From NCBI RefSeq assembly GCF_020741345.1, contig NZ_DYZD01000060.1:78-64077 (forward strand): a stretch of DNA of 64,000 bases, in the 5' to 3' direction. The notes under the pieces were generated by a model. That model was not told the origin of the DNA, ran no database searches, and worked only from the letters and a program-made list of their open reading frames with translations. Shown here one piece after another: positions 7,669 through 31,171 of this stretch; positions within the stretch are counted from its first letter, which is position 1; every line of letters begins with the position of its first letter. Source of the stretch: Nocardiopsis listeri. GTDB lineage: Bacteria > Actinomycetota > Actinomycetes > Streptosporangiales > Streptosporangiaceae. The position numbers and the translations under genes are program-made.

Positions 7669-7798
7669 GAAGGGTTTCCTCGAGAGGGGGATGACGTGTA
7701 CTTTCGTCGCCCGCCACAGTATGCGAAGCCCGAGCCGGCTACACGGTCGAACCGAGCACCGGGACGGGCTCGGGCCGGCGTTTCGGACGGAAAAGCCT

Positions 7799-7841
7799 TT
7801 GACAGTGGAGGAAACCGCCACCTAAGTTGACAGTGACAACT
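7799..7841 (+). promoter_or_regulatory. Housekeeping-type promoter (TTGACA-N18-TAAGTT) with overlapping palindromic operator
   Basis: TTGACA 7799-7804, TAAGTT 7823-7828. Inverted repeat AGTTGACA-G-TGACAACT at 7825-7841 lies 25 bp before the ATG. Confidence 0.6.
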
Positions 7842-7865
7842 TTCGTCTGCCCGGGAAGTCGCCCC

Positions 7866-15254: not shown

Positions 15255-16607
15255 TCACCCAGGGTGACCACACGACGACGCGTCCGGACGTCGGGTCGTC
15301 TCGCCCCGGCCGGTCGAACAGGGGTGTCCCCCATCGCGATCCAAAAGTGCCCGCACCCCCGGTGCCAACGAATCGGGGAGCAGGTTCACCGAGGTCTGTG
15401 AACCGATCACCCGAACCGTGACCTCGTCCGCGAAGCGGTAGGGGCGACTCTCGATCACTCCGCCCAGGTTGCGCCTGATCCTGGACAGTTCCGCGCGCAC
15501 GGTGACCACGTGGGCGTCGGCGCCGAACACGTCCTTGGACAACTCGGCGCCCGAACGCCCCGCCCGGTGCACCGCCAACAGGAGCAGGAGTTCGGTGTGG
15601 CGCGGGGTCAGGTTGTGCACCCACTCTCCGCTCGGGCCGGCCACCGTCACCGTGGACGCCCCGGGTTTGCGCAGGTCCAGGGTGACCGAGGTGGAACCGG
15701 CCCGTTCCCCGGGGCGCGGGCGGATGAGCCAACCGCCCGGCAGGGGTTCCAGACCGCACTCCCCCAGGGCGGGGATCCAGGCCGTGCCGCTCTCGCAGTG
15801 CTTGGGCAACAACACCCGGCGGACCGGTTCCATGTGCACCGCGGCGGCGGTCCAGCCGCTGTCGTCCACCACCAGGGCGGGTCGGGTCAGCCCGGCCAAC
15901 AGGGGCGCGGCCACCGAGCGCAACCGTTCCAGGTGGGTGTGGTGCAACCCTTGCAGGTGCGCCTGGGCCAGTTGGGCGACCGCGTTGACCAGGGCCAGGG
16001 TGGAGGGGTGGATGGTGGACACCGGACCGGTGACGTCGATGGCGCCCAGCAGTCGCCCGTCCCGGGGGTCGTACACGGGGGCGCAGGCGCAGGTGAGGGT
16101 GTGCAGGTTGCGCACGAAGTGTTCGGCGGAGTAGACCTGCACGGGGCGACCGACCACCAGCGCGGTGCCGATGGCGTTGGTGCCTATGCTGCCCTCGTTC
16201 CAGAAGGAACCCTCCACCAGCCCGACCCGGTCACCGACCGAGCGCATCCTATGGGACCCCTCGCGCCAGAGCACCTGCCCCGAGGAGTCGGTGACCAGCA
16301 TGATGTGGTCGGCCTGGTCGGCCACCGAGACCAGGGAACGACGGATGAGCGGCATCACCTCGGCGATGGGCGAGGCGTCCCGTTGGCGTTGGAGTTCGTC
16401 CAGGCGGGCCACCCGTGGCGGGGGTCCGCAATCGGGATCGATGCCGAATCCACGCATACGTTCCCAGGAGTCCTCGATCACCGGACGCAACGGCGCGGGC
16501 GTTGGGCGCCCTGCGAGCAGCGCGTCGTGGGATCGGCGGAGCAGGTCGGCGTGCTCGCGCGCGTCCACCCCGGAGGGTAGCGCCGTGTCCAGCGATGGAA
16601 ACGTCAT
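15255..16607 (-). CDS. GAF-domain transcriptional regulator with C-terminal HTH (AcoR-like N-terminus)
   Basis: RPVIEDSWER, WNEGSIGTNAIGTAL, AEHF, CACAPVYDP..G.LLGAIDVTG, C-terminal LTPRHTELLLLL...VRAELSRIR. Alternative start 16616. Confidence 0.85.
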   Translation of the reverse strand: MTFPSLDTALPSGVDAREHADLLRRSHDALLAGRPTPAPLRPVIEDSWERMRGFGIDPDCGPPPRVARLDELQRQRDASPIAEVMPLIRRSLVSVADQADHIMLVTDSSGQVLWREGSHRMRSVGDRVGLVEGSFWNEGSIGTNAIGTALVVGRPVQVYSAEHFVRNLHTLTCACAPVYDPRDGRLLGAIDVTGPVSTIHPSTLALVNAVAQLAQAHLQGLHHTHLERLRSVAAPLLAGLTRPALVVDDSGWTAAAVHMEPVRRVLLPKHCESGTAWIPALGECGLEPLPGGWLIRPRPGERAGSTSVTLDLRKPGASTVTVAGPSGEWVHNLTPRHTELLLLLAVHRAGRSGAELSKDVFGADAHVVTVRAELSRIRRNLGGVIESRPYRFADEVTVRVIGSQTSVNLLPDSLAPGVRALLDRDGGHPCSTGRGETTRRPDASSCGHPG

Positions 16608-17096
16608 GTGGGTCATCGGGGCACGTTCCCCCGCCCGGAAGACGGGAGGACTCGCCCCTTCCTCCTTCTACGTGGCCAGGCCCCGAAAGACCGGGGTTCG
16701 AGTTAGGCGTCAGTTTCCTGGTTCGACTGCGGCGGGGCCGAGAGAACCGGGAGAGTCCCTTGTTTCGGAAGTCATTTCGGTTCGATCCTTCCGTTTCCTG
16801 CTCGAATTATCCTTGGGTCATACCGAACACGCTCGTGCGGGTTTTCCGGGGTAGTGCCCTGGTTCGAGCCACTGGTGGGGGTTTCGGCACGGGGGTGTGC
16901 AGGTCATACGGATGGGGGTCGAAACGGATAACATCCCCAGATTCGAAGCAACTCACGAAACGTCGACGAAAATGGCCGGATGCGGCCAAACGGCGAGTCC
17001 CTAATTCCCCCTGTTCTTCGCCCGTTCACACAGGTGAGCCGGGTTATCGCGGGTTTTCGGTCGGGTACCCGCACGTGCATCGGCCCGTGCGGGGTC

Positions 17097-18671
17097 TCAT
17101 GAAGGTTCCTGTGCATCACAAGGACGGCGGGTGAGGGCGAACCACAGACGCATGCGCTGTTCGGGATCGGCCAGGTCCACGCCCAGGTCCCGTTCGATCC
17201 GCCCGATCCGGTAGCGGACGCTGTTGCGGTGCACGCCGAGGTCGGTGGCGGCCCGATCCCAGTTACCGTGCCTGGCCAGCCAGGTGTGCAGGGTCGCGCG
17301 AAGGGTGTGCGCGGCCGAGGTTGCCTCGTCCAACGGGCCGAGGATGTCCCGGGCGCCCCGGCCGGCGCCGCCGGGGTCGATGAGCGCGTCGAAGGGGTCG
17401 GTGGCCGGCGACCACAGCCGTGGTTCGTCCACGGCGCGGGCGCGCACCAACAGAGCGGCGGCCCGGCGATCGGCGGCGGGCAGGTCGTCGGGCGTGGTGG
17501 CCTCGCTCAGGGCGCCGATCCACCCATGGGAGCGCAGGAGCTCGAGGTGGTCGTGATGGGCCTGTTCCCCCCGGTCGGCGAGGACCGCGCGCACGACACC
17601 GCCGCCTTCCTCGGAGCCGGGGGCCAGATCGCTCAGGTGGGTGCCCAAGGGCAGGGCCGCGGCGGCGGTGCGGTGCCCTCGGGAGGCGGGCACCGCCCGC
17701 AGGACCCGGTATCCGTCCTCGCGGGCGCCGCCCGGGGTTGCGGCGCGAGGCTCGGGGGTGCGGGTGTCGGTGAGTTCGGTCAGGGCCGCGATGGCGCGGG
17801 GGTTCAGTTCACCGTCCAACAGCAGCGCGGTGAGCGGCAGGCCGGGAGCGGGCGGCTCCTCGCCCTCGGCGCGCAGCAGCAGATCGAGCAGGGCTGTGGC
17901 GGTGCGCAACACCTCCCTGTCGGTGATGCCCAGGGGTTCGGGGCGGCCCACCAGGACCACGCCCTGATGTTCGGGCGGGGTGCCCACGGTGTGCAGGAAG
18001 ACCTCGTCGGGACCGCTGTCGGCCTTGGCGCTGCGCGGCCCCGTGGGGGAGGTGAGTTTGGTGATCAGGGTGCGCAGTTCGGGATCGAGGTCGGTCGGCG
18101 CCCCCACGGTGCGCCGCACTCGCGCGTCGGGGTCGGCGGGGACGAGGGCGACCCAGGCTCCGAGTGCGTCGGCCAGCACCGCGGGCAGCCGTTCGACTGG
18201 GGTGGGCGCGGTGACGGCGCGGGCCAGGGCCTGGTGGGACTCGCCCAGACGACGCAGGTCGCGCAGGTGGCGCTCCTCCAGTTCCTCCCCCACGGCGCGG
18301 CTGACCGCGGCGAAGGGAGAGTTCTGCGGCACCTCCAACAGCGCAAGACCCTGCAGCCGACACTGTTCGACGAGGTCGGCGGGGACGGTCTGGTGTACGG
18401 GCGCCACTCCGAAGCCGAGGGCCCCGACCCCCGCGCGCACCAGTGAGGCCACGTAGGTGCGCACCTCCTGGGTGTCGGTGGGCAGGTTGGCCCCGGAGGT
18501 GAGGAGGAGTTCTCCGCCACGCAGGTAGTCGGCGGCCACGACGAGTTCGCTCGCCACCGCCCAGGTGATCGGCGGGTCACCGACCTCGACCACCGTGGTC
18601 AGGCCCAGATCGCGGCGGGCCACCACCACGCTCAAGGGCACGTGGTGGGCGTCGATCCCCTTCTTCGCCAT
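17097..18671 (-). CDS. PucR-family transcriptional regulator (524 aa)
   Basis: N-terminal WAVASEL...DYLRGGELLLTSG (PucR ligand domain); C-terminal WLARHGNWDRAATDLGVHRNSVRYRI HTH. Confidence 0.9.
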   Translation of the reverse strand: MAKKGIDAHHVPLSVVVARRDLGLTTVVEVGDPPITWAVASELVVAADYLRGGELLLTSGANLPTDTQEVRTYVASLVRAGVGALGFGVAPVHQTVPADLVEQCRLQGLALLEVPQNSPFAAVSRAVGEELEERHLRDLRRLGESHQALARAVTAPTPVERLPAVLADALGAWVALVPADPDARVRRTVGAPTDLDPELRTLITKLTSPTGPRSAKADSGPDEVFLHTVGTPPEHQGVVLVGRPEPLGITDREVLRTATALLDLLLRAEGEEPPAPGLPLTALLLDGELNPRAIAALTELTDTRTPEPRAATPGGAREDGYRVLRAVPASRGHRTAAAALPLGTHLSDLAPGSEEGGGVVRAVLADRGEQAHHDHLELLRSHGWIGALSEATTPDDLPAADRRAAALLVRARAVDEPRLWSPATDPFDALIDPGGAGRGARDILGPLDEATSAAHTLRATLHTWLARHGNWDRAATDLGVHRNSVRYRIGRIERDLGVDLADPEQRMRLWFALTRRPCDAQEPS

Positions 18672-18758
18672 GTTCCTCGTCCCCCTCGTTCCCCGGCCCG
18701 TCCGAGCCGATCCCCGTGTCCTGGACATGACGTACACGAGGACGCCTTCCGATCCGAC

Positions 18759-18773
18759 TGGACGATTCATCCA
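18759..18773. promoter_or_regulatory. Near-palindrome in PucR/symporter divergent region (candidate PucR site)
   Basis: TGGACGA-T-TCATCCA, one mismatch. Confidence 0.4.
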
Positions 18774-18925
18774 AAGTCAACCGAGGAGTGGTGCGGTTCG
18801 GCCACTGGAGTGGAGCCTACCGACTACCTACGCTGACCGAAGCGATGTGACCTGCGTCAACATCCCCATGGCCCGACCCTGCGCACCACCCCTGCCCCCC
18901 GAACCACTCCCCGCAAAGGAGCTTC

Positions 18926-20440
18926 ATGCTCATCGACACCGCGGTGATCGCCGCCTACCTCCTGGGCATGGTCGGCCTGGGCTGGTGGGGCATGCGCCGC
19001 GCCAAGAGCAAGTCCGACTACCTGGTCGCCGGCCGCCGCCTGGGCCCGCTGATGTACGCGGGCACCATGGCCGCCGTGGTCCTGGGCGGCGCCTCCACCG
19101 TCGGCGGGATCGGCCTTGGCTACACCTACGGGATCTCCGGAGCCTGGCTGGTCGTGGCCATCGGTGTCGGCATCCTGGCCCTGCACCTGTTCTTCGCCGA
19201 GCGCATCTCGCGGCTGAGGGTCTTCACCGTCTCCGAGATGCTGGACCTGCGCTACGGCGGGGACTCCCGAATCGTGTCGGCCCTGGTCATGTGGGGTTAC
19301 ACCTTCGTTCTGACGGTGCCCTCGACCCTGGCCTTCTCCACCATCTTCAGCGGTCTGTTCGAACTGCCGCGCGTGGTCGCGATCATCCTGGGCGGCTCCA
19401 TCGTGGTGCTGTACTCCACGATGGGCGGCATGTGGTCGGTGACGATGACCGACATGGCCCAGTTCGCGATCAAGACGATCGGGCTCCTGTTCATCCTGAC
19501 CCCGGTGGCGGTGTGGTCGGCCGGCGGTTTCTCCGGGATGCGCGAGTCGTTGGACCCCTCCTACTTCGACCCCACCGCCATCGGCGGGCAGACCGTACTC
19601 ACCTACTTCGTCATCTACTCGCTGGGCCTGCTCATCGGCCAGGACATCTGGCAGCGCGTCTTCACCGGCCGCGACGACAAGGTCGCCAAGGTGGGCGGCA
19701 TCGGCGCGGGCGTGTACTGCCTGATCTACGGCGTGTGCGGCGCGCTCATCGGCACGGCCGCCGCGGTGATGTTCCCGAACCTGGCCGACCCCGACCACTC
19801 CTTCACCCTCATGGTGGAGGCGACCCTGCCCACGGGTGTGGCCGGCCTGGTCCTGGCCGCCGCCCTGTCCGCGGTGATGTCCACCGCCAGCGGCGCCCTC
19901 ATCGCCTGCTCCACGGTGACCTCCACCGACCTGTGGCCGCGTGTGCGCGCCCTGTTCGGCGCGAAGAGGTCCGCGGAGGGCGACCAGGACGGTGACGAGG
20001 TGGCCGCCGGCCGGGTGTTCACGCTGCTCCTGGGGGTGGCGAGCATCTGCGTGGCGTTGGCCGTGGACAACGTGGTCGCCGCGCTCACGCTGGCCTACAA
20101 CATCCTGGTCGGCGGCCTGCTCGTCGCGATCCTCGGTGGCCTGGTATGGCGTCGGGGAACCCGCGTGGGCGCCCTGGCCTCGATGCTGGCCGGTTCCGTG
20201 GCCGTCATCGTGACCATGGCGATCACCGGACTGCTCGCCAACGAACCCATCTACGTGGGGCTGGGCACCGCGCTGGTGGTCTACGTGGCCGTCAGCCTGC
20301 TCACCCCGCCCACCGACCCCGCGGTACTGGAGCTGTGGCAGCGCCGTCTGCGCGGCCAGGACATCGGCTCCGAGACCGCGACGGAAACCGACGAGGACGC
20401 CACAAGCGTCGCGTCCACCGACCCGCCCCGGGACCGCTGA
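18926..20440 (+). CDS. Sodium:solute symporter family protein
   Basis: RBS AAGGAG; [41 protein letters not shown]; about 13 TM-like segments. Confidence 0.93.
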
Positions 20441-20477
20441 CACCCACCACGGAACCGACGACACAGGAATGGATCAA

Positions 20478-21437
20478 ATGAACGCACCGATCGGACCCAC
20501 CGACTCCAGCCTCGTACCGCGTTTCGCCGGCCCGGCGACCTTCGCCCGGCTGCCCCGCATCGACCAGGTGGAACGGGCCGACATCGCCGTGATCGGGGTG
20601 CCCTTCGACACCGGTGTCTCCTACCGTCCCGGGGCCCGTTTCGGCCCCTCGGCGATCCGTGAGGCCAGCCGGCTGCTGCGTCCCTACAACCCCGGCCTGG
20701 ACGTGTCCCCATTCGAGCGCCTCCAGGTGGTGGACGGTGGCGACATCGCGGTGAACCCGTACTCGGTCGGGGACGCCGTGGAGACCCTGGACCAGGGCGC
20801 CTCCGAGTTCGTGCGCGCCGGGACCCGCCTGGTGACCCTGGGCGGCGACCACACGATCGCGCTGCCCCTGCTCAGGTCCCTGTACCGCGTGCACGGCCCG
20901 ATCGCCATGCTGCACTTCGACGCCCACCTGGACACCTGGGACACCTACTTCGGTGAGCCCTACACGCACGGCACCCCGTTCCGACGCGCGGTGGAGGAGG
21001 GCATCCTCGACACCGAGGCGATCGCCCACGTGGGCACCCGTGGCCCCCTGTACGGCAAGCGCGACCTGGAGGACGACCGTCGCTTCGGGTTCGGCATCGT
21101 CACCGCCGCCGACGTGCTGCGCAAGGGCGTGGACGAGATCGCCGACGCGCTGCGTCAGCGCATCGGGAACCGGCCGCTGTACGTGTCGGTGGACATCGAC
21201 GTCCTGGACCCGGCGCACGCCCCGGGCACCGGCACCCCGGAGGCCGGCGGGATCACGAGCAGGGAGCTGCTGGAGATCCTGCGCGGGTTGGCCGACCTGA
21301 ACCTGGTGGGCGCCGACGTGGTGGAGGTCGCCCCGGCCTACGACCACGCCCAGATCACCTCCACCGCTGCCTCGCACGTGGCCTACGACCTGGTGAGCCT
21401 GCTGGCCCTGAACCACCAGCGCAAGACGGAGGCCTGA
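20478..21437 (+). CDS. speB: Agmatinase/guanidinobutyrase-type ureohydrolase
   Basis: [48 protein letters not shown] Mn-binding motifs. Start 20478 fits the RBS; alternative 20469. Substrate not determinable from sequence. Confidence 0.9.
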
Positions 21438-21441
21438 TCAC

Positions 21442-23082
21442 ATGGGTGGGAGCGCGCCGCGCAACGGTGGCGACCTGGTCACCGAGACCCTGACCGCGTT
21501 GGGGTCCCGGGTGTGCTTCGGCATCCCCGGCCAGCACGCGCTGGGGCTGTTCGACGCGCTGCGTCGAGCCCCCGGGCTGCGGTTCGTGTCGGCCAGGGTG
21601 GAGAACAACGCGGCCTTCGCCGCGGACGGGCACGCCCGGGCCACCGGTGAGGTCACCCCGTTGTTGGTCTCCACCGGGCCCGGCGCGCTGCTCACCCTGG
21701 CCTCGTTGCAGGAGTCCCGGGCGGCCTCGGCTCCGGTGCTGGTGATCAGCGGCCAGGTGCCGCGGGCGGGGCTGGGCGGTGGCCGCCACGGCTACCTGCA
21801 CGAGCTGCCCGAACAGGCGGCCTCCTTCGACAACGTCACCAAGTCGACGTTCACGGTCCGGCACGCCTCGCAGATTCCCTCGGCGCTGGTCGAGGCCTGG
21901 CGGACCGCCGCCCGGGCGCCCGCCGGCCCGGTGCTGGTGGAGATCCCGCAGGACGTGCTGCTGGAACCGACCGTCGTGCCTCCGGTGAGGGACGTGTCCG
22001 CTGCACCGACCCCGCTGGTTCCGCGCGCGGAGGTGGTGGACGAGGCGGTCCGCCTGTTGGACGGGGCGCGACGTCCGGTGGTGCTGGCCGGTGGCGGCGT
22101 GAGCCGTGCGGGCGGCCGGAAGGCGCTGCTGGAGCTGGCCGAGGCCCTTCGGGCACCGGTGGCCACCACCTTCGGCGGCAAGGACGCCTTCCCTTGGGAC
22201 CATCCGCTCTCGCTGCGGTCGTGGATCGAGGACCGGTACACCACCGCGTATCTGGAGGAGGCCGACGTGCTCCTGGTGGTGGGTTCGGGGCTGGGCGAGT
22301 TGTCCAGTAACTACCACACCATGGCGCCGCGAGGACGGGTGGTGCAGGTGGAGGCCGACCTCGGCAAGCTGGAGTCCAACGTTGCGGCGCTGGGGATCCA
22401 CGGCGACGCGGCCACGACCCTGGCGGCACTGGCCGCGAAGGTGCGGCCCCGCGTGAAGGATCCGGAGGTCGAGGCCGAGGTCGCCCGGGTTCTGGCCAGT
22501 GTGGCCGAACGGCTGGCCGGGCAGGATCTGGCCGCCGAACAGACCGTTCTGGCGGCGGTGCGCGCGGCACTCCCCGATGACGCTCCGAGCTTTTGGGACA
22601 TGACCGTGTTGGCGTACTGGGCGTGGTCGGCGTGGGACCCGCGCGAGGGCGCGATGCACTCGGCGCAGGGCTCCGGTGGACTCGGCTACGGGTTCCCCGC
22701 CGCGCTGGGCGCCGCCTCGACCGGAAGGGGTCCGGTGCTGGCGGTCTCCGGTGACGGCGGCGCCATGTACTCGATCGCGGAGCTGGCCACCGCGCGCCAG
22801 CACGACCTGGACGTGACGTGGTTGATCGTCGACGACGGCGGCTACGGGATCCTGCGCGAGTACATGGAGGGCGCCTTCGGGGAGGCCACCCACACGGAGC
22901 TGACCCGACCCGACTTCGTGGCCCTGGCCGCCTCGTTCGGGGTGCCCGCGACCCTCACCTCACCGGAGACGGTGAAGGTCGATCTGGCCGCCGCGCTGGC
23001 CGTCCCGGGACCGAGCGTGGTGGTGCTTCCCATGCACGTGAACATGTTCGCCCCCACCCACCTGGACGACCCCATGCCCTGA
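21442..23082 (+). CDS. Thiamine-diphosphate-dependent enzyme (acetolactate synthase-like/AruI-like decarboxylase)
   Basis: FGIPGQH, ARVENNAAFAADG (catalytic Glu), STGPG, GLGYGFPAALGA, SGDGGAMY. Confidence 0.88.
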   Translation: MGGSAPRNGGDLVTETLTALGSRVCFGIPGQHALGLFDALRRAPGLRFVSARVENNAAFAADGHARATGEVTPLLVSTGPGALLTLASLQESRAASAPVLVISGQVPRAGLGGGRHGYLHELPEQAASFDNVTKSTFTVRHASQIPSALVEAWRTAARAPAGPVLVEIPQDVLLEPTVVPPVRDVSAAPTPLVPRAEVVDEAVRLLDGARRPVVLAGGGVSRAGGRKALLELAEALRAPVATTFGGKDAFPWDHPLSLRSWIEDRYTTAYLEEADVLLVVGSGLGELSSNYHTMAPRGRVVQVEADLGKLESNVAALGIHGDAATTLAALAAKVRPRVKDPEVEAEVARVLASVAERLAGQDLAAEQTVLAAVRAALPDDAPSFWDMTVLAYWAWSAWDPREGAMHSAQGSGGLGYGFPAALGAASTGRGPVLAVSGDGGAMYSIAELATARQHDLDVTWLIVDDGGYGILREYMEGAFGEATHTELTRPDFVALAASFGVPATLTSPETVKVDLAAALAVPGPSVVVLPMHVNMFAPTHLDDPMP

Positions 23083-23100
23083 CCAGGACCCGGGTCAGGT

Positions 23101-23258
23101 CCCGAACATCCGCCGTCCGCACCGGACGGTCGACCCGCCCTCGGGGCACGCGTCAACGGCGCCGCGTGCCCCGAGGACACCCGAACATCCGAGTCCCCGA
23201 TGGGACACCGGTGTTCCGTTCCCGAGACGGCACGCGTCGACGACGCCGCGCGCCCGTC
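23101..23258 (+). repeat. Tandem duplicated structured element (two ~78-nt units)
   Basis: CCCGAACATCCG at 23101 and 23180; small GTCC..GGAC hairpins at 23113-23129 and 23193-23206; 27-nt core GGCACGCGTCRACGRCGCCGCGYGCCC at 23145-23171 and 23229-23255. Confidence 0.75.
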
Positions 23259-23319
23259 CCTGCTCGTTGAATCCCCGCTCCTTTCATCCCTCAGCAGTGC
23301 AGCCCTCAGGAGTACAGCC

Positions 23320-24825
23320 GTGTCCCAGTCCCGACCCGCCCCCGTGACGGTGGTGGAGACCCACGGGGTCGCACCGATCCCGGTCTCCGACCAGTCCTCA
23401 CGCCCCTTCGACCTGTTCCGTCTCACCTTCGGCGGCGCCAACACCTTCGCCACGATCATCCTGGGCACCCTGCCCATCGCCTACGGTCTGGGGTTCGCCG
23501 CGGCGGCCGCCGCCACCGTGGTCGGTGTGGTGCTCGGGGCGCTCATCCTCTCCCCCATGGCACTGTTCGGTCCCCGGACGCGCACCAACAACGCCGTCTC
23601 CTCCGGAGCGCACTTCGGCGTGGTGGGGCGTGCCCTGGGCTCCCTGCTGTCGTTGCTCACCGCCGTCACGTTCTTCTCGATCTCGGTGTGGGTGAGCGGT
23701 GACGCCATCGTCGGCGCCGCGCACCGGCTGGGGTTGCCCGGCGGCGACGCGCTGCGCGCGGTCTCCTACGGTGTGATCGCCGTGGCGGTGTTCGTGGTGT
23801 GCGTGTACGGCTACCAGTTCATGTTGCTCATCAACAAGATCGCCGTGGTGGCCGGCAGCGCCCTGATGTTGCTGGGCTTCGTGGCCTATGGGGGCGCGTT
23901 CGACCCCTCCTTCGCCGGCAGCGGCGACCACATCCTGGGCGGATTCTGGCCCACCTGGGTGCTGGCCGTGCTGACGGTGATGGCCAACCCGGTCTCCTTC
24001 GGCGGGTTCCTGGGCGACTGGTCGCGTTACATCCCGGCCACGACCTCCACCCGCCGACAGTTGGTGGCCCCGTTCATGGCCCAGCTGTGCACCCTGCTGC
24101 CGTTCGGGTTCGGGCTGTTCACCGCCACCCTGGTCGCCGACCCCGACCGCTACGTGTCCGGGCTGGCCGCCGTCTCCCCCTTCTGGTACGCGCTTCCGCT
24201 GCTGTTGGTGGCGCTGGTGGGGGGACTGTCCACCGGCACCACGGCGCTGTACGGCACCGGGCTGGACTTCTCCTCGCTGGTCCCTCGCCTGAACCGGGTA
24301 CAGGGCACCGTCGTGGTGGGTTTCCTGGCCCTGGCGCTGGTGTTCGTGGGCACGTTCCTGTTCGACTTCGTCGAAACGATCAACGCCTTCGCGATCCTCA
24401 TCGTCCTGCTCACCTCCCCCTGGATGGTGATCATGATGCTGGGCTACGTGTTCCGGCGCGGCCACTACCTGGTCGAGGACCTACAGGTGTTCAACGAGGG
24501 ACGCCGGGGCGGCAGGTACTGGTTCCGCTCGGGCGTCAACTGGCGCGCGATGACCGCGTGGCTGCTGTCCGCTCTGGCCGCCCTGCTGTTCGCCAACACC
24601 CCGCTGTTGGTCGGCCCGTTGGGGAACCTGGCCGCCGGCATCGACATCAGCCTTCCGGTGGCGCTGGCGACCGCCGCGATCGTCTACCCCACGGCGCTGT
24701 TCCTCTTCCCCGAACCGCGCTCGGTGTTCGGCCCCAAGGGCCCGCGCCTGGTGCCGGCACGCGAGGACAGCGAACCGGCCCCCGCAGCCACCACCGAGGA
24801 CGCGCCGACCATCGCGGCGCACTGA
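23320..24825 (+). CDS. NCS1/purine-cytosine permease family protein (501 aa)
   Basis: GTG start after CAGGAG; VETHGVAPIP, FGGANTF, GAHFGVVGR, DWSRYIP, LYGTGLD motifs. Confidence 0.88.
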   Translation: MSQSRPAPVTVVETHGVAPIPVSDQSSRPFDLFRLTFGGANTFATIILGTLPIAYGLGFAAAAAATVVGVVLGALILSPMALFGPRTRTNNAVSSGAHFGVVGRALGSLLSLLTAVTFFSISVWVSGDAIVGAAHRLGLPGGDALRAVSYGVIAVAVFVVCVYGYQFMLLINKIAVVAGSALMLLGFVAYGGAFDPSFAGSGDHILGGFWPTWVLAVLTVMANPVSFGGFLGDWSRYIPATTSTRRQLVAPFMAQLCTLLPFGFGLFTATLVADPDRYVSGLAAVSPFWYALPLLLVALVGGLSTGTTALYGTGLDFSSLVPRLNRVQGTVVVGFLALALVFVGTFLFDFVETINAFAILIVLLTSPWMVIMMLGYVFRRGHYLVEDLQVFNEGRRGGRYWFRSGVNWRAMTAWLLSALAALLFANTPLLVGPLGNLAAGIDISLPVALATAAIVYPTALFLFPEPRSVFGPKGPRLVPAREDSEPAPAATTEDAPTIAAH

Positions 24826-24856
24826 GACCACCCACGACTTCGATCGAAGGACCACC

Positions 24857-26290
24857 ATGAGCAGCCACGATCCCCTGTACAGCCTGGTCGACGGTGAGCC
24901 CCTGCACCCCAGGGGCGGGGCGACCCTGGACCTGGTCGACCCCGTCACCGGACAGGTGACCGGCCGGGCCGGGGTCTGCGGCCCCGCCGAGGTGGAGTCC
25001 GCCATGGACTCCGCGGCCCGCGCCTTCCGGTCCTGGCGCCGAGCCACACCCGCGCAGCGCCAGGACGCCCTGCTGGCGATCGCCGACGCCCTGGTCGAAC
25101 ACGCCGAGGAGTTCGCCGACGCCGAGTGCCGCGAGACCGGCAAGCCGCGCGCGTCGTTCCTGGACGAGGAGATCCCGTTCTGCGTGGACACCCTGCGATT
25201 CTTCGCCGGGTCAGCCCGACACCTGGAGGGCAAGGCCGCGGCCGAGTACGCCACCGATCGCACCTCCTGGATCCGCCGCGAACCGGTGGGCGTGTGCGTG
25301 GGCATCACTCCGTGGAACTACCCGCTGATGATGGCGGTGTGGAAGATCGGCCCGGCGCTGGCCGCGGGCAACACGGTGGTGCTCAAGCCCGCCGAGTCCA
25401 CCCCGAGCACCACGGTCCTGCTCGCCGAGATCGCCGCACGGGCGCTCCCCGCCGGTGTGGTCAACGCGGTGGTGGGCGACCGTGACACCGGCCGCCTGTT
25501 GGTGGAGCACCCGGCCACGCGCCTGGTGTCGGTCACCGGTTCGACCAGGGCGGGGGCACAGGTGGCCAAGGCGGCCGCCGACGACATCAAGCGCGTGCAC
25601 CTGGAGCTCGGCGGCAACGCCCCGGCGGTGGTCTTCGACGACGCCGACGTGGCCGGCGCCGCGGCCGGTGTGGTCGCGGGCGGTTTCCTCAACGCCGGAC
25701 AGGACTGCACCGCCGCCACCCGGGTCATCGTCCAGGAGGGGGTGCACGACGAGTTCGTCGCCGAGCTGACCCGTCTGGCGTCGGCGCAGGTCACCGGCCT
25801 GCCCTCGGACCAGGAGAGCGACTTCGGGCCGCTCAACAACGCCGACCAGTTCGCCCGGGTCACCGGGCTCTTGGAACGCCTGCCCGCGCACGCCAGGGTG
25901 GAGACGGGCGGACATCGGGTGGGCGAGGCCGGGTTCTTCCTCGCGCCCACCGTGGTCTCCGCTCTGCGCGCCGATGACGAGATCGTGCTGGAGGAGGTGT
26001 TCGGCCCGGTGGTGACCGTGCAGCGCTTCGCGGACGAGAGCGAGGCGGTCGAACTGGCCAACGGGGTCGAGCAGGGACTCGCCTCGTCGGTGTGGACCCG
26101 TGACCACGCGCGGGCGATGCGGGTCTGCGCCGAGCTGGACTTCGGCGCGGTGTGGCTCAACACCCACGGCGACCTGCTCTCGGAGATGCCGCACGGGGGC
26201 TTCAAGCGGTCCGGGTACGGCAAGGACCTGTCGGCCTACAGCCTGGAGGACTACACCCGCGTCAAGCACGTGATGAGCGCCCTGGACTGA
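24857..26290 (+). CDS. Aldehyde dehydrogenase (aminobutyraldehyde/guanidinobutyraldehyde dehydrogenase-like)
   Basis: ITPWNYP, VLKPAE, TGSTRAG, LELGGNAP, NAGQDCTA (catalytic Cys), EEVFGPV, HGGFKRSGYG. Confidence 0.92.
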   Translation: MSSHDPLYSLVDGEPLHPRGGATLDLVDPVTGQVTGRAGVCGPAEVESAMDSAARAFRSWRRATPAQRQDALLAIADALVEHAEEFADAECRETGKPRASFLDEEIPFCVDTLRFFAGSARHLEGKAAAEYATDRTSWIRREPVGVCVGITPWNYPLMMAVWKIGPALAAGNTVVLKPAESTPSTTVLLAEIAARALPAGVVNAVVGDRDTGRLLVEHPATRLVSVTGSTRAGAQVAKAAADDIKRVHLELGGNAPAVVFDDADVAGAAAGVVAGGFLNAGQDCTAATRVIVQEGVHDEFVAELTRLASAQVTGLPSDQESDFGPLNNADQFARVTGLLERLPAHARVETGGHRVGEAGFFLAPTVVSALRADDEIVLEEVFGPVVTVQRFADESEAVELANGVEQGLASSVWTRDHARAMRVCAELDFGAVWLNTHGDLLSEMPHGGFKRSGYGKDLSAYSLEDYTRVKHVMSALD

Positions 26291-26336
26291 CGCCGTTCGT
26301 GGACCGCCGCGCGCGGACCCGCCCAGGGGCCTTCCT

Positions 26337-26957
26337 CTAGACCCTGGCGGGTCCGCGTGTGCGCAGGTGGGACCAGGTGAGCTCGGCGACGTGTCCGGCC
26401 ATCGTGTCGGGGGTCTCGTCCGGGTGGTCCAGGAGCCAGTCCGCGAAGGCGTCGGCGGTGCTCACCGCCACCCGGGCCAACAGTTGGGCGTCGCGGACGT
26501 CCATGTCGCCGTAGTCGTCGCGGGTGCAGGCGGTGATGAGATCGGCCATCTCCGCGGTGACACGGTCGCGCATACGGGCGGTCTCGGCCTCGAAGGGCCG
26601 CCCCTGCGCGGCGGCGCGCCGGTAGAGCACGGTCCAGCTCTCGCGGTTGTCGACCACGAACGCGAAGAAGGCGCGCATGCCACGGCGCAGCGGGTCGTCG
26701 TCGATGGGACTGGGTGCGTGCACGGCGCTACGGATGGCCTCGATGAGGCGTTCCATCTCCCGGCGCACGCAGGCGGTGAAAATACCCTCCTTGGAACCCA
26801 GGTAGTGGTACGCGGTGGGTTTGGAGGTCCCGGCGGCCGTCGCGATCTCCTCCACGCTGACGGTGTGGTAGTCGCCCCGGGAGAACGCGGAAACGGCGGC
26901 GTCGATCAGCTGTTGTTCCCTGACCCCGCGCGGGAGCCTGCGTTGTTTGGTCTTCAC
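26337..26957 (-). CDS. TetR/AcrR-family regulator
   Basis: RREQQLIDAAV-like N-terminal helix, SVEEIATAAGTSKPTAYHYLGSKEG HTH. Start estimated at GTG 26957. Confidence 0.85.
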   Translation of the reverse strand: MKTKQRRLPRGVREQQLIDAAVSAFSRGDYHTVSVEEIATAAGTSKPTAYHYLGSKEGIFTACVRREMERLIEAIRSAVHAPSPIDDDPLRRGMRAFFAFVVDNRESWTVLYRRAAAQGRPFEAETARMRDRVTAEMADLITACTRDDYGDMDVRDAQLLARVAVSTADAFADWLLDHPDETPDTMAGHVAELTWSHLRTRGPARV

Positions 26958-27168
26958 GTGAACCGACCCTAACGGGATCGGTGGAGGTGGCCAGGGGAGA
27001 CCGTGGGCGTGGCGGGCCGCCCGAGCCGGGACCGGTCGGCCTCGCGCGTGTGACCTGTGGGGCCGCGGCCGCATTGAATCCCGGGGGTGGCGCATCCCAC
27101 ATTCCGAGACGTTCGAGTGGGCGGATTCCGCACGGACGTGCGCGGAACCCGCCTCTTTCGTTCGGCCG

Positions 27169-28005
27169 TCAGGAAGGGGAGTCGCGCAGTTCCAGGGTGC
27201 AGCACTTGGCGCCGCCCCCGGCCTTGCGGAGTTCGTCGAGTTCGATCGGATGGACCGTGTATCCCAGGGACCGGAGCCTCTCGGCGAGCGCGGTGGCCTC
27301 GGCGGCGATGACCACGTTGCGGCCGTCACCGACGGCGTTCAGGCCCAGGACGGCCGCGTCCTCCTCGGTGGCCAGGAGCGCGTCGGGGTACAGGGCGCGC
27401 AGCACCCGACGGCTGCCCTCGGAGAACGCGCCCGGGTAGTAGGCGATCCGCTGTCCCGACAGGGCGAACAGCGCGGTGTCCAGGTGGTAGAAGCGCGGGT
27501 CGACCAGTTGCAGGGTGACGACCGGGCGATCCAGGAGTCGTTCTGCCTCCTGGTGGGCGGCGGCCTCGGTGCGAAAACCCGTGGCGGCCAGGATGACGTC
27601 GTCCAGGGTGATGAAGTCGCCCTCACCCTCGTTGACGTGTTTGGGTTCGTTGGTCTCGACGTAGCCGGCCTTGCGGAACCAGTCGAGGTAGGCGGGCCCT
27701 TCGGGGGTGCGTTCGGCGCTGGCGAACCGGGCCCCGTAGACCCGACCGTCCACGACCAGGCCACCGTTGGCGGCGAAGACCATGTCGGGCAGGCCTTCGA
27801 TGGGGGCTATCTCGCTCACGCGGTGCCCCAGGGACAGGTAGAGGTCGCGGAGCCCTTCCCACTGCCGAACGGCGCGGTCGCGGTCCACGCCCAAGGCGGG
27901 ATTCATCCAGGGGTTGATCGCGTATTCCACCGCGAAGTAGGTGGGACGGCACATCAAATAGTGCCGGGGCGCCGCCACCGGCGCCGGGTCTGCGGGTCGA
28001 GCCAT
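27169..28005 (-). CDS. ddaH: Dimethylargininase (DDAH)/amidinotransferase superfamily
   Basis: HYLMCRP..F.VEYAINPWM, LPDMVFAAN, EGEGD, FYHLDT, GGGAKCCTLE (catalytic Cys). Confidence 0.88.
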   Translation of the reverse strand: MARPADPAPVAAPRHYLMCRPTYFAVEYAINPWMNPALGVDRDRAVRQWEGLRDLYLSLGHRVSEIAPIEGLPDMVFAANGGLVVDGRVYGARFASAERTPEGPAYLDWFRKAGYVETNEPKHVNEGEGDFITLDDVILAATGFRTEAAAHQEAERLLDRPVVTLQLVDPRFYHLDTALFALSGQRIAYYPGAFSEGSRRVLRALYPDALLATEEDAAVLGLNAVGDGRNVVIAAEATALAERLRSLGYTVHPIELDELRKAGGGAKCCTLELRDSPS

Positions 28006-28044
28006 GGAACCTCCCCATCGAGGTGCCCCGGAGGCCGAACGGCC

Positions 28045-28077
28045 CGCGGTGGTTCAGGCCTTTACCACCGCGTTTTT
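28045..28077 (+). terminator. Intrinsic-terminator-like hairpin inside the DDAH/ADH divergent region
   Basis: 9-bp stem CGCGGTGGT/ACCACCGCG followed by TTTTT. Confidence 0.45.
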
Positions 28078-28267
28078 CCGGGCGGACATTCGTTGGATAC
28101 CCATACCGGGAGGGCGTCAATATCGACCTTTCCGCGAACGACTCGAAAACGGAAGGTTCCAACGCGCCCCGCCCCTCGCGATCCCGTTCGAGGACGCCCC
28201 CGACCAACAGACCGACCGGCCGGTATTGTTAGGGTCGCGCCAGTTCCCTGATTGGAGTACCCCCATC

Positions 28268-29362
28268 ATGAGCACGACCGTCAAGGCAGCCGTCTTCCAC
28301 GAGACCGGTGCACCCCCGAAGATCCGTTCCCTGGTCCTGCCCACCCCCGGCCCCGGGCAGGTACTGGTACGCCTGGCGGCGGCGGGTGTGTGTCACTCCG
28401 ACCTGTCCCTGTCCAACGGCACCCTGGCCCAGTCCTGGCCCGCCGTCCTGGGCCACGAGGGCGCCGGCACCGTCGAGGAGGTCGGCCCCGAAGTCGAACA
28501 TCTGACGCCCGGCCAACAGGTCGTCCTGAACTGGGCGCCCGCCTGTCGAGAGTGCTGGTTCTGCCTCCAGGGGGAGCCCTACCTGTGCGAACACGCCCTG
28601 GACGGCACCCTGACCCCCTACGCCGAACTGACCGACGGCACCCCCGTCTACGCCGGCTTGAGCACGGGCGCCTTCGCCGAGGCCACCGTCGTCTCGGCCA
28701 AGGCCGTGATCCCGCTGCCCGATGGGATCGACCCGGCGGTCGGGGCCGTGCTGGGATGTGCGGTGGTCACCGGATGGGGCGCCGTCAACAACGCCGCCCG
28801 ACTGCGCGAGGGGCAGTCCGCGGTGGTCCTGGGCTTGGGCGGGGTCGGTCTGTCCGTGCTCCAGGCGGCCCGGGTGGCCGGGGCCGGCCCTCTGATCGCG
28901 GTGGACGTCTCCCCCGACAAGGAGGAGTTGGCCCGCTCTTTGGGCGCCACCGACTTCCTGGTCGCCGACGGAAGCACCCACAAGGCCGTGCGGGGGCTGA
29001 CCGGCGGGCGCGGCGCCGACCACGCCTTCGAGGTGGTGGGCAAGGCCCAGGTGGTGCGCACGGCCTGGAACAGTGTGCGCCGGGGCGGAACCGTGACCGT
29101 GGTGGGCCTCGGCTCGGCCAAGGACGAGGTGTCCTTCAACGCCCTGGAACTGTTCCACCAGGGCCGTACCGTGCAGGGATGCGTGTACGGCTCCAGCGAC
29201 CCGGACCGGGACATCCCGCTGCTGGCCGAATCGGTGCGCTCCGGCGATCTGCGCCTGTCGGCGATGGTCACCGACGAGATCCCCCTGGAGGGTGTTCCCG
29301 AGGCCTTCGAACGCATGGGTCAGGGCAGGGGCGGGCGGTCACTGGTGCGGTTCGGGGCTTGA
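28268..29362 (+). CDS. Zinc-dependent alcohol dehydrogenase (class III-like, 364 aa)
   Basis: GVCHSD, GHEG, CRECWFC...C structural Zn site, GCAVVTG, GLGGVG. Confidence 0.92.
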   Translation: MSTTVKAAVFHETGAPPKIRSLVLPTPGPGQVLVRLAAAGVCHSDLSLSNGTLAQSWPAVLGHEGAGTVEEVGPEVEHLTPGQQVVLNWAPACRECWFCLQGEPYLCEHALDGTLTPYAELTDGTPVYAGLSTGAFAEATVVSAKAVIPLPDGIDPAVGAVLGCAVVTGWGAVNNAARLREGQSAVVLGLGGVGLSVLQAARVAGAGPLIAVDVSPDKEELARSLGATDFLVADGSTHKAVRGLTGGRGADHAFEVVGKAQVVRTAWNSVRRGGTVTVVGLGSAKDEVSFNALELFHQGRTVQGCVYGSSDPDRDIPLLAESVRSGDLRLSAMVTDEIPLEGVPEAFERMGQGRGGRSLVRFGA

Positions 29363-29368
29363 GAAGAG

Positions 29369-29413
29369 CGTTCGGGGGCCGTGGTGTCGGACGGACACCA
29401 CGGCCCCCGAACG
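29369..29413. terminator. Long hairpin between convergent ADH and DhaKL genes
   Basis: 20-bp perfect stem CGTTCGGGGGCCGTGGTGTC/GACACCACGGCCCCCGAACG; second hairpin at about 29419-29457. Confidence 0.75.
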
Positions 29414-29461
29414 GGGGCGTCCCCATGGGGGTCCCCTCACGGCACACCATGGGGACCCGTC

Positions 29462-31171
29462 TCAGGACAGGACGTCGCGCAGTTCCTCCAGGAACCGCAG
29501 GAGGGCCACCGAACCGGGGTCGCGCTCACCGGCCCCGCGCTCACCCACCCAGGCCGCACGACCCCTGGCCGACGTCAGTCCGCTGGTCTCCTCCACGGCG
29601 CGCCCGGCCGCGGAGGCCGCGTCCCGCGCGGCCGCCCTCGGGTCCTGTGCGCCGCTCAAGGCCTCCTCCACCGACAGCAGCCCGTCCACGAACGTCTTGT
29701 CGCCGGGCTCGGCGCCGCCTCGCTCCCGCACCCTGCGGGACACCGCGGCCGTGAGACGCGCGGCGTCACGGACCGAGATGGAGTCGGATTCCTCGCACTC
29801 GGCGGCCGCGGCGAGCAGGCCCGCGCCGGTCAAGGCCGCGAACGTGGAGGGATTGGCCGCCGCGAACGCCGTCGCCGCGGCGCGCAGCACGTCGGCGTGG
29901 TGCGCGTCCTCGGGCAGCGTCAGCAGCACCTCACGAACGGCCGACGCGCCCGAGGAGACCGTGATCCCCAGGTCACCGTCGCCGAGCCGCGAGTCCAGCA
30001 GGCGCAGTTCCTCCGCGTGGGAGGGCATGCGCTCCATGGCGGCGATCAGGGTGGTGCGCAGCGCGCTGACCGAACCGGTTCGGCGCACGGCGGGGGCCGC
30101 GCCCGCGCCCGACTCCGCACCCGGCGCACCCGCCTCTTCGGTACGCGCGCTCGGCGCGGGCGTGTTGCCCTGCCCGAAGAACGGGGACGCCGCCGGGGCG
30201 TCGATCAGTTCGGCCAGTTCGTCGTCGAGCAGCAGCACGGAAACCGAGGCACCCGCCATCTCCAGGCTCGTCGCGAACTCGCCGATGTAGCGCCGATGGA
30301 TGACCACACCGCGCTCCCCCAGCACCTGGTGGACCCGGCGGTAGATCAGGTAGAGCTCCTCCAGCGGGGTGGAGCCCAGTCCGTTCACCAGGACCACGAC
30401 CCGGTCCCCCGCCTCGGGGTCCAGTTCGCCGAGGATCTCGGTGAGGAAGCGGTCGGTGATCTGGTCGGCGGTCTCCAACGGGCCCCGGTGGCTTCCGGGT
30501 TCGCCGTGGATACCGATCCCGACCTCCATCTCCCCCTCGTCGAGGGTGAAGGTGGGTTCACCGGCGGCGGGCAGGATGGTGGGCGACAGGCCCACGCCCA
30601 TCGTGCGGGTGGCGTCCACGGTGCGCTGGGCCACCGACCGCACCTTCTCCAAATCGTCGCCGCGTTCGGCGGCGGCACCCGCCGTCTTGTAGGCGAAGAA
30701 CAACCCGGCCACCCCGCGCCTGGTCGCTTCCTTGCCACGGGGGGCGGAGAGCACGTCGTCGGTGCCCAGTACGGTCGCCGTCTCGATCCCCTCCGCCGCG
30801 ACGACGTCCCCGGCCAGGTCGAAGTTGTAGACGTCGCCGCCGTAGTTGCCGTACAGGTACAGCACACCGGCCCCGCCGTGGCTCGCACGCGTGGCGGCGG
30901 CGATCTGTTCTGCGGACGGGGAGGAGAAGACGTTGCCCACGGCCACCCCGGTGGCCAGGCCCTGTCCCACGTAGCCGAGGAACAAGGGGAGGTGACCGGA
31001 GCCACCCCCCGTCACGATGCCGACGCGTCCCCGGACGGGCGCGTCGGCGCGCACCAGCGCCCTGCGGTCGGCGGTCGCCGCGCGCAGCCGGTCGGGGTGC
31101 GCCATGAGCAGCGACTCGGTGACCTCGTCGACGAAGTCCTCGGGCCGGTTGATGATCTTCTTCAGCGCCAT
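29462..31171 (-). CDS. Dihydroxyacetone/triose kinase family, DhaK-DhaL fusion
   Basis: GGGSGHLP, GNVFSSP, GNYGGD, GIGIHGEPG (DhaK); LDSRLGDGDLG, PGDKTFVD, ARGRA (DhaL). Confidence 0.9.
   Translation of the reverse strand: MALKKIINRPEDFVDEVTESLLMAHPDRLRAATADRRALVRADAPVRGRVGIVTGGGSGHLPLFLGYVGQGLATGVAVGNVFSSPSAEQIAAATRASHGGAGVLYLYGNYGGDVYNFDLAGDVVAAEGIETATVLGTDDVLSAPRGKEATRRGVAGLFFAYKTAGAAAERGDDLEKVRSVAQRTVDATRTMGVGLSPTILPAAGEPTFTLDEGEMEVGIGIHGEPGSHRGPLETADQITDRFLTEILGELDPEAGDRVVVLVNGLGSTPLEELYLIYRRVHQVLGERGVVIHRRYIGEFATSLEMAGASVSVLLLDDELAELIDAPAASPFFGQGNTPAPSARTEEAGAPGAESGAGAAPAVRRTGSVSALRTTLIAAMERMPSHAEELRLLDSRLGDGDLGITVSSGASAVREVLLTLPEDAHHADVLRAAATAFAAANPSTFAALTGAGLLAAAAECEESDSISVRDAARLTAAVSRRVRERGGAEPGDKTFVDGLLSVEEALSGAQDPRAAARDAASAAGRAVEETSGLTSARGRAAWVGERGAGERDPGSVALLRFLEELRDVLS

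Follow-up and report, generated by a model that had tools for sequence, protein, structure and literature searches.

We analysed a 64,000-nucleotide stretch of Nocardiopsis listeri DNA (contig NZ_DYZD01000060.1; the whole stretch is called the window here), and on balance we lean towards reading its genes from 17097 to 26290 as one PucR-controlled operon for arginine-derived guanidino compounds. The operon would take 2-oxoarginine to gamma-aminobutyrate (GABA) and urea. In Pseudomonas aeruginosa the thiamine diphosphate (ThDP) enzyme AruI decarboxylates 2-ketoarginine, KauB carries out the oxidation, and GbuA gives GABA and urea. The Nocardiopsis operon appears to be the lower half of the Pseudomonas arginine transaminase/oxidase/dehydrogenase pathway, built from other lineages of the same superfamilies. 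Its features are as follows.

17097..18770, minus strand: PucR-family regulator (PF07905 and PF13556)
18771..18925, no strand: divergent control region between the PucR and symporter genes, 155 nt, assigned by position alone
18926..20440, plus strand: sodium:solute symporter (SSS; PF00474)
20469..21437, plus strand: arginase-fold ureohydrolase (PF00491, 329 bits)
21442..23082, plus strand: ThDP-dependent enzyme of the acetolactate-synthase superfamily, three domains (PF02776, PF00205, PF02775)
23083..23319, plus strand: spacer with hairpins before the NCS1 gene, 237 nt (sequence and folds)
23320..24825, plus strand: NCS1-family permease (PF02133)
24857..26290, plus strand: NAD(P)-dependent aldehyde dehydrogenase (ALDH), PatD/aminobutyraldehyde dehydrogenase subfamily (PF00171, NF010000)

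The proposed mechanism runs as follows. A PucR-type activator would switch on the SSS, ureohydrolase, ThDP, (NCS1) and ALDH genes. The symporter would take up 5-guanidino-2-oxopentanoate (2-oxoarginine), or else a precursor that an unlinked oxidase or transaminase converts. The ThDP enzyme would decarboxylate 2-oxoarginine to 4-guanidinobutanal, the PatD-type ALDH would oxidise this to 4-guanidinobutanoate, and the ureohydrolase would split that acid into GABA and urea. The NCS1 gene is an insert specific to some lineages, with a leader of its own, and its permease may import the guanidino acid (4-guanidinobutyrate) directly. GabT, succinic semialdehyde dehydrogenase and urease would complete assimilation. 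Profile searches find genes for urease alpha (863 bits) and GabT (596 bits) elsewhere in the host genome, so urea and GABA could be assimilated.

A conserved gene set in Actinomycetota

We compared the window with 80 public loci that hold an orthologue of the ThDP enzyme (62-93% identity). These loci span Nocardiopsaceae, Pseudonocardiales, Kitasatosporales, Micrococcales, Propionibacteriales and Actinomadura, and include one metagenome-assembled genome (MAG) of the Acidimicrobiia. The SSS gene lies upstream of the ThDP gene in 68 of the 80, the ureohydrolase gene immediately upstream of it in 65, and the ALDH gene downstream in 59; a divergent PucR-like gene is present in 65. Since the order SSS, ureohydrolase, ThDP enzyme, ALDH recurs in 59-68 of 80 loci, the arrangement is not due to chance. 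The conserved unit is a PucR gene together with SSS, ureohydrolase, ThDP enzyme and ALDH. NCS1 is found in 4-5 of the 80 loci. The closeness of the central pair is plain in the window itself, where the ThDP gene starts 4 nt past the end of the ureohydrolase gene.

The ureohydrolase is widely distributed. Orthologues at 55% identity or more are encoded by 79 of 301 sampled Actinomycetes genomes and in 40 of 150 genera, a tally that takes in the unpublished genomes G182 and G187. None of the loci analysed here, and no individual conclusion, depends on these or on the other unpublished genomes named below. One large-genome genus has an orthologue in all 14 of its genomes; the ureohydrolase-ThDP pair is there too, mostly with SSS. 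The set is also borne by a 55-kb Arthrobacter plasmid, on which the SSS gene diverges from genes annotated as XRE-cupin, 'speB agmatinase' and 'TPP-binding protein'. A search of a limited literature library found no paper on the actinobacterial cluster.

The exceptions are informative about how the set is divided. Five loci (L027, L051, L058, L063 and L080) lack the ureohydrolase yet keep SSS and the ThDP enzyme, often with ALDH, and all five genomes encode one ureohydrolase orthologue elsewhere. In an Actinomadura locus (L185, 1456-3935; a genome related to MAG DASYNF010000236) the gene for a ureohydrolase orthologue (64% identity) is separated by 24 nt from a GABA transaminase gene downstream, whose product passes both GabT models (NF004714, 769 against 639 bits); the SSS-ThDP pair of this genome lies at a separate location. 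This neighbour indicates GABA as the product of the ureohydrolase. Another stand-alone ureohydrolase gene (L181) has a PucR gene divergent from it.

Several loci carry additional copies. In Streptomyces sp. NPDC096012 (L182) a stand-alone ureohydrolase gene is followed by a second ThDP gene, so that a second pair sits away from the SSS-ThDP-ALDH locus. An Acidimicrobiaceae MAG locus (L073) has two diverged ureohydrolase copies, at 3461-4417 and 6988-7983. On the 55-kb plasmid of Arthrobacter sp. NicSoilB11 (NZ_AP024658.1; L166, 18280-43221) a block of ureohydrolase, ThDP, MarR, MFS and ABC genes is present as a large inverted duplication. The two copies of its ThDP, MarR and MFS genes encode identical proteins, and the second ureohydrolase copy is apparently frame-shifted and unannotated.

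The ureohydrolase and the carriers

We are fairly confident that the ureohydrolase belongs with the guanidino-acid hydrolases and not with the agmatinases. More narrowly, it would be a 4-guanidinobutyrase-type hydrolase, one whose orthologues are publicly annotated as agmatinase or speB. Its metal motifs are intact (GGDH at 125, DAHLD at 151, SVDIDVLDP at 240 and EVAP at 286). The best match in a PDB search is the P. aeruginosa guanidinobutyrase GbuA (3NIO, 276 bits), followed by proclavaminate amidinohydrolase (PAH; 1GQ6, 266 bits) and the guanidinopropionase GpuA (3NIP, 257 bits), all three of them hydrolases of guanidino acids; a Burkholderia agmatinase (4DZ4, 225 bits) and the E. coli SpeB agmatinase (7LOL, 210 bits) score lower. 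We rejected the guanidine hydrolase GdmH as an identity for the enzyme: its structures score 174 (7ESR) and 165 bits, well under GbuA, and HypA/B-like genes were not seen in the cluster. The host genome has only one other, distant, arginase-fold gene.

The residue that caps the pocket is a published marker of specificity. In GbuA (R72) and in human AGMAT (R105) an Arg from the neighbouring subunit caps the pocket and has been proposed to bind the acidic head group or carboxylate (PMC9772407). E. coli SpeB has Trp68 at the position equivalent to R72, proposed to hold the amine of agmatine, and other putative agmatinases have Glu (PMC8125230). R71 of the window enzyme ('LLRPYN') aligns with GbuA R72 and SpeB W68, and all 11 complete actinobacterial orthologues in our alignment have this Arg. 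All 11 also keep 'HGTPFRRA', where GbuA has TFRRA, GpuA has PFRRA and SpeB has MFYTA, and all have a loop B of GbuA length, a loop that SpeB is without. Loops A and B of the window enzyme resemble those of GbuA and GpuA and are longer than those of SpeB. By the criteria of PMC8125230, a SpeB-type enzyme has an aromatic or acidic residue at the W68 position and short loops A and B; the window enzyme has neither.

The enzyme can be compared with two well-known relatives. It is like GbuA of P. aeruginosa in its R72-type Arg cap and its FRRA motif. It is like SpeB in its arginase fold and its intact binuclear-metal site; public annotation equates it with SpeB, and the ALDH of the operon belongs to the subfamily of the E. 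coli enzyme PatD (YdcW). It differs from SpeB in having Arg for Trp68 and longer, GbuA-like loops. SpeB is moreover a biosynthetic enzyme encoded beside speA and has no ThDP partner, which is not the situation in the window. The preliminary description, made from this DNA alone, had suggested that the apparent agmatinase may be a guanidinobutyrase, and the Arg cap, the FRRA motif, loop B and the ranking of GbuA, PAH and GpuA in the PDB search support this at the level of a guanidino-acid hydrolase.

The carriers tie the operon to Pseudomonas. A scan for a GbuA-specific peptide retrieved 51 proteobacterial loci, and several Pseudomonas-group genomes have gbuA, then a transporter gene, then a ThDP gene that passes the AruI model NF005712 at 849-864 bits. 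Pseudomonas sp. LRF_L74 and Phytopseudomonas flavescens have the order gbuR-gbuA-NCS1-SSS-aruI-ALDH, with the same five families as the window, and P. argentinensis and Ectopseudomonas oleovorans have gbuA-SSS-aruI. We know of no paper on these gbuR-gbuA-[NCS1]-SSS-aruI-[ALDH] clusters. In P. aeruginosa itself, transporter genes and one for a 'probable decarboxylase' may likewise come after gbuA (PA1421). The window SSS is 50-52% identical to the SSS encoded between gbuA and aruI in Pseudomonas, against 29-30% for the next-best paralogue; the window NCS1 is 57-58% identical to the NCS1 beside Pseudomonas gbuA, against 27% for the next best. No close paralogue of either carrier was found in the host genome. 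Identities of 50-58% against 27-30% make SSS and NCS1 specific orthologues, tied in two phyla to clusters for a guanidinobutyrase and a 2-oxoarginine decarboxylase. This orthology supports the route from 2-oxoarginine through 4-guanidinobutyrate to GABA and urea.

The two carriers keep different company. NCS1 follows the ureohydrolase gene, with no ThDP gene, in three Nocardiopsaceae genomes (L189, L190 and L192), where the PucR gene is divergent, and NCS1 also occurs with a ureohydrolase and no ThDP enzyme in P. luteola and P. typographi (L117, L118). Since NCS1 travels with the ureohydrolase and SSS with the ThDP enzyme and ALDH, we infer that NCS1 supplies the ureohydrolase with its substrate and that SSS does the same for the ThDP/ALDH pair. 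Within the operon, SSS would thus be the importer of the ThDP substrate or its precursor.

The Pseudomonas loci show one further variation. A Gate-domain membrane protein stands in place of SSS in P. indica and E. mendocina, which looks like a non-homologous replacement of the carrier. This 'nucleoside recognition' protein of about 470 aa is encoded between gbuA and aruI in P. indica (L084), E. mendocina (L090) and P. yangonensis (L086). An FAD oxidoreductase encoded beside the LRF_L74 cluster was considered and set aside: it is not conserved across the Pseudomonas loci, and the host genome encodes no homologue.

Proposed decarboxylation and oxidation, and the rival substrates

The ThDP enzyme has the expected catalytic features, an activating Glu ('RVENN') and the sequence 'GDGGAMY...LIVDDGGYG' with its GDG...DD Mg-binding motif. 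The ...GYG motif past the Mg site is common to this enzyme and the superclade that contains AruI. We built a tree from AruI, a true PRK08266 member, actinobacterial relatives, and paralogues from the host and from Pseudomonas. The 9 rows of the window clade group together with 100% support. They belong to a superclade with 99% support that also contains AruI, PRK08266 and other actinobacterial clades but leaves out IlvB/IlvI, PRK08199, PoxB and PRK08273. The gene is linked to those of a guanidino-acid hydrolase and an ALDH in the proportions given above. Membership of the superclade and gene context, not orthology, are our reasons for proposing that the enzyme is a 2-oxo-acid (5-guanidino-2-oxopentanoate) decarboxylase. 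It is not an AruI orthologue and is a member of a separate, long-branched clade.

The ALDH passes the aminobutyraldehyde dehydrogenase subfamily model NF010000 (649.5 against 615 bits) and misses the strict equivalog TIGR03374 (507 against 909). Its best PDB matches are the gamma-aminobutyraldehyde dehydrogenases 6C43 and 1WNB, of the PatD/YdcW type. The catalytic residues are present, with Glu in LELGG at 249 and Cys in GQDC at 287-290. The pass on NF010000 fits a cationic omega-substituted aldehyde as substrate, and the enzyme would be a 4-guanidinobutanal dehydrogenase.

A number of observations weigh against the 2-oxoarginine route as we have drawn it. The ThDP enzyme scores 313.5 bits on NF005712, under the cut-off of 500, and its best model, the uncharacterised PRK08266, is also missed (351 against 571 bits). 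The IlvB of the host scores 338 on PRK08266 and 310.6 on NF005712, like the window enzyme. These scores are generic because IlvB scores alike on both models, and we reject a model score as proof of AruI identity for the same reason. Actinobacterial PRK08266 matches mostly score about 340-375 bits, which is the range of ordinary acetolactate synthase cross-matches (this tally takes in the unpublished genomes G028 and G158). Identity to AruI is 31-34%. The stem of the window clade is long (1.42), its sister relation to AruI and the inner branching are not settled by the tree, and other actinobacterial sequences (L160 and L162) sit closer to AruI than the window clade does. The ALDH is PatD-type and 36% identical to the ALDH beside Pseudomonas aruI. 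The identities of the ureohydrolase do not discriminate, at 41-46% to GbuA, 46% to Pah1 and 43% to SpeB, and it passes the agmatinase models NF002564 (323 against 302 bits) and TIGR01230 (235 against 174). A guanidino-acid chain of C4 cannot be told from C3 or C5 by reading the sequence. Finally, no keto-acid-making (entry) enzyme is clustered in any locus that we examined.

Two of these points need further comment. The preliminary description had proposed a phylogeny of the ureohydrolase. A quick maximum-likelihood tree with GbuA orthologues, Pah1 and E. coli SpeB as references does set the window enzyme in a distinct clade, but SpeB, the GbuA clade and the window clade form a trichotomy. The same description remarked that the cluster holds no entry transaminase or oxidase, and this is true of its flanks as well. 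Around the 80 ThDP loci, the recurrent flanking genes include neither type of enzyme; they are Lentzea-specific neighbours (a methyltransferase, DUF4383, an M50B peptidase and an anti-sigma factor).

It is useful to set the window beside P. aeruginosa directly. AruI, KauB and GbuA carry out the same three types of reaction, belong to the same superfamilies and lead to the expected products, GABA and urea. The differences are that the window ThDP enzyme forms a separate clade, the ureohydrolase is not placed with GbuA by the tree and the ALDH is PatD-type; that the regulator is PucR-type and not LysR-type (GbuR), and the genes form one operon with carriers; and that no equivalent of AruH or DauA lies near the operon. 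The Pseudomonas gbuA-aruI clusters share with the window five gene families, orthologous carriers and the lack of a clustered entry enzyme. They differ in gene order, in their LysR-type regulator, in having genuine AruI and GbuA, and in an ALDH of another subfamily. The preliminary description had reconstructed the 2-ketoarginine route from the three enzymes. The type of the ureohydrolase agrees with this and the gene set and carriers mirror the Pseudomonas clusters, but the part that would make the ThDP enzyme an AruI was not borne out.

An agmatine/putrescine route would make the ureohydrolase a SpeB giving putrescine and urea, have the ALDH turn 4-aminobutanal into GABA, and leave the ThDP enzyme unrelated. 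We regard it as very unlikely. The two agmatinase models just mentioned speak for it, as do the PGAP name 'speB agmatinase' for the orthologues, the pass of the ALDH on the aminobutyraldehyde dehydrogenase model and its best matches to PatD structures. However, a GbuA taken from a gbuA-aruI cluster scores 215 bits on TIGR01230, which is a pass, and 298 on NF002564; since GbuA in its genuine context passes TIGR01230, the match of the window enzyme says nothing about agmatine. The invariant Arg is that of GbuA, where agmatinases have Trp or Glu for the amine, and loops A and B follow GbuA and GpuA, not SpeB. No putrescine aminotransferase or oxidase is clustered, and a query with E. coli SpeA gave a weak, partial match of 26% in the host genome. 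The tight coupling of the ureohydrolase and ThDP genes (the 4-nt gap, and adjacency in 65 of 80 loci) would be left unexplained.

A different guanidino substrate handled by the same logic is a more serious rival, and we would still call it unlikely. The product amino acid would then not be GABA. Candidates are the homoarginine-derived 6-guanidino-2-oxohexanoate, giving 5-guanidinovalerate, a C3 analogue giving 3-guanidinopropionate, and a broad range that includes taurocyamine. The ureohydrolase is about equally near GpuA, PAH and GbuA in bits and forms its own clade; the human homologue of GbuA favours taurocyamine while also accepting several guanidino acids (PMC9772407); AruI lies outside the ThDP clade; and the presence of two different carriers hints at more than one substrate. 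Against this stand the genuine GABA transaminase encoded directly past the ureohydrolase orthologue in Actinomadura, the pass of the ALDH on a 4-aminobutyraldehyde dehydrogenase subfamily model, and the orthology of the carriers to those of the gbuA-aruI clusters.

The third rival is biosynthetic, with a ThDP enzyme that condenses a guanidino compound and a ureohydrolase that later removes the amidino group, as by CeaS and PAH. PAH is the second-best solved relative of the ureohydrolase, and the cluster of S. clavuligerus also unites a ThDP enzyme and an 'agmatinase' (Pah1). The ThDP enzyme has 48 PDB matches at E<1e-30 and carboxyethylarginine synthase is not among them. The locus has no beta-lactam synthetase or other biosynthetic gene; it does encode two importers, an ALDH and a regulator of catabolic type, and the ureohydrolase has the Arg cap that Pah1 is without. 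We give this scenario next to no chance, and reject it on the PDB matches, the gene content and the cap.

If the 2-oxoarginine route is correct, public annotation is misleading. In PGAP annotation the ureohydrolase is named 'agmatinase (speB), spermidine biosynthetic process' and its partner 'thiamine pyrophosphate-binding protein'. The first label would wrongly imply that many actinomycetes have a route to putrescine through arginine decarboxylase and agmatinase, and would hide a nitrogen route of soil actinobacteria from arginine-derived keto and guanidino acids. The route would also provide candidate functions for an uncharacterised ThDP subfamily and for two carrier families for which no guanidino substrate is known. 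Since Pseudomonas has already made the biochemistry familiar, a specialist would find the result useful more than surprising. Its main value, as we see it, lies in correcting an 'agmatinase/speB' annotation that is widespread and in supplying candidate carriers for guanidino compounds.

Regulation and the neighbouring TetR-DDAH-ADH genes

The divergent PucR protein is a probable activator of the operon. The 155-nt spacer between the PucR and SSS genes has no sigma-70-like promoter and no inverted repeat, and a promoter and terminator scan gave nothing above shuffled sequences.

The leader of the NCS1 gene has more structure. Its 237 nt form strong hairpins, one of them with an ACGA tetraloop closed by G-C. 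A hairpin with an ACGA or ACGG tetraloop ('CG ACGR CG') recurs upstream of NCS1 in L003, L189 and L190, whether NCS1 follows the ThDP or the ureohydrolase gene. A second hairpin has a six-base AACGGC loop in the window; its loop is conserved as 'CAACGGCG', and its stem covaries in Marinactinospora (L015). The comparison covered positions 23083-23319 of the window together with L003, L005, L015, L189 and L190. We defined a guanidine-II motif by a match to RF01068 together with two hairpins that have ACGR tetraloops closed by G-C. Rfam gave no match in the leader at E<=1, RF01068 (guanidine-II, mini-ykkC) included, and no Rfam riboswitch in 16500-30000 of the window, in two Pseudomonas loci (L144 and L146) or in the Marinactinospora locus. 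In Pseudomonas sp. LRF_L74 (L144:4109-4223) there is a partial match to the NrsZ small RNA, of 49 bits and below the gathering score, a few kb from gbuA-aruI.

A bolder set of claims can be put together from the carriers and the leader, and we think it improbable as a whole. SSS and NCS1 would be the first known dedicated importers of 2-oxoarginine and 4-guanidinobutyrate respectively, across Actinomycetota and Pseudomonadota. The NCS1 gene would be under the control of an RNA with a guanidine-II-like ACGR hairpin, and this RNA would respond to a guanidino compound and not to free guanidine. The 'SpeB agmatinase' of Streptomyces-like genomes would make no putrescine.

Downstream of the operon lie genes for a TetR-family regulator, a dimethylarginine dimethylaminohydrolase (DDAH) and an alcohol dehydrogenase (ADH).

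26337..26957, minus strand: TetR-family regulator, downstream of DDAH (PF00440 and PF21943)
27169..28005, minus strand: DDAH, Mycobacterium tuberculosis (Mtb) type (NF045659)
28045..28072, no strand: imperfect palindrome in the DDAH/ADH spacer, 28 nt (repeat search)
28268..29362, plus strand: Zn-dependent class-III-like ADH, divergent from DDAH (PF08240 and PF00107)

We read the TetR and DDAH genes with the divergent ADH gene (26337-29362) as an independent, TetR-controlled unit that merely neighbours the operon, because adjacency to the core is limited to Nocardiopsis and DDAH has a rocD partner elsewhere. The DDAH passes the Mtb-type dimethylargininase equivalog NF045659 (404.2 against 300 bits) and has the C-terminal GGGAKCC region with the catalytic Cys. 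Of 121 Actinomycetes genomes sampled, 29 encode an orthologue, in a tally that takes in the unpublished genome G173. In 12 DDAH loci elsewhere (L169-L180) an ornithine-oxo-acid transaminase gene (rocD; TIGR01885, 496-503 against 378 bits) adjoins in eight, and a protein of about 150 aa, with no NCBIfam match at E<=1e-20, is encoded beside DDAH in nine. The window is like the M. tuberculosis-type systems in its DDAH but differs from those with RocD and a small regulator, having TetR and a divergent Zn-ADH in place of rocD and the ~150-aa gene. Because DDAH is so steadily paired with rocD, one may ask if these 'DDAH' enzymes supply a route that forms ornithine.

The preliminary description had joined these genes to the operon as a methylarginine branch. 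An integrated system, in which the TetR-DDAH-ADH genes feed methylarginine products into the core, seems to us distinctly improbable. The two units share a target, the guanidino groups of arginine derivatives, the adjacency is held in 10 Nocardiopsis loci while NCS1 varies, and the usual partner rocD is missing here, as had been remarked from the start. Those 10 loci, however, are the only ones of the 80 in which DDAH stands beside the core; in the other 70, all outside Nocardiopsis, it does not. The module lies on the other strand and has a TetR and a candidate operator of its own, the DDAH product citrulline is the substrate of no core enzyme, and DDAH elsewhere has the partners of its own counted above. 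The claim of an integrated branch thus does not survive the comparison.

The independent unit has a few features of its own. The palindrome at 28045-28072 (CGCGGTGGTTCAGG / CCTTTACCACCGCG) has 14-nt arms that are 86% complementary with no spacer, and is a candidate TetR operator. In some Nocardiopsis species there is about 1.3 kb more between DDAH and ADH. The ADH falls below the cut-offs of the models for mycothiol-dependent formaldehyde dehydrogenase and NDMA-dependent ADH.

The gene families of all nine genes, as the preliminary description had named them, were verified by Pfam and NCBIfam profile searches. We re-placed the start codons of three genes using in-frame starts and domain positions. 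The TetR gene most likely starts at GTG 26957; ATG 28268, with GGAG ahead of it, is the likelier start of the ADH gene; and the NCS1 gene, whose open reading frame opens at 23200, likely starts at GTG 23320 with AGGAG ahead. The window has a G+C content of about 70% and the host is a Nocardiopsis draft genome of 5.5 Mb; the public loci nearest to it come from Nocardiopsis sp. JB363 and N. listeri. A GAF-domain protein is encoded upstream of the genes described here and a DhaK/L kinase downstream.

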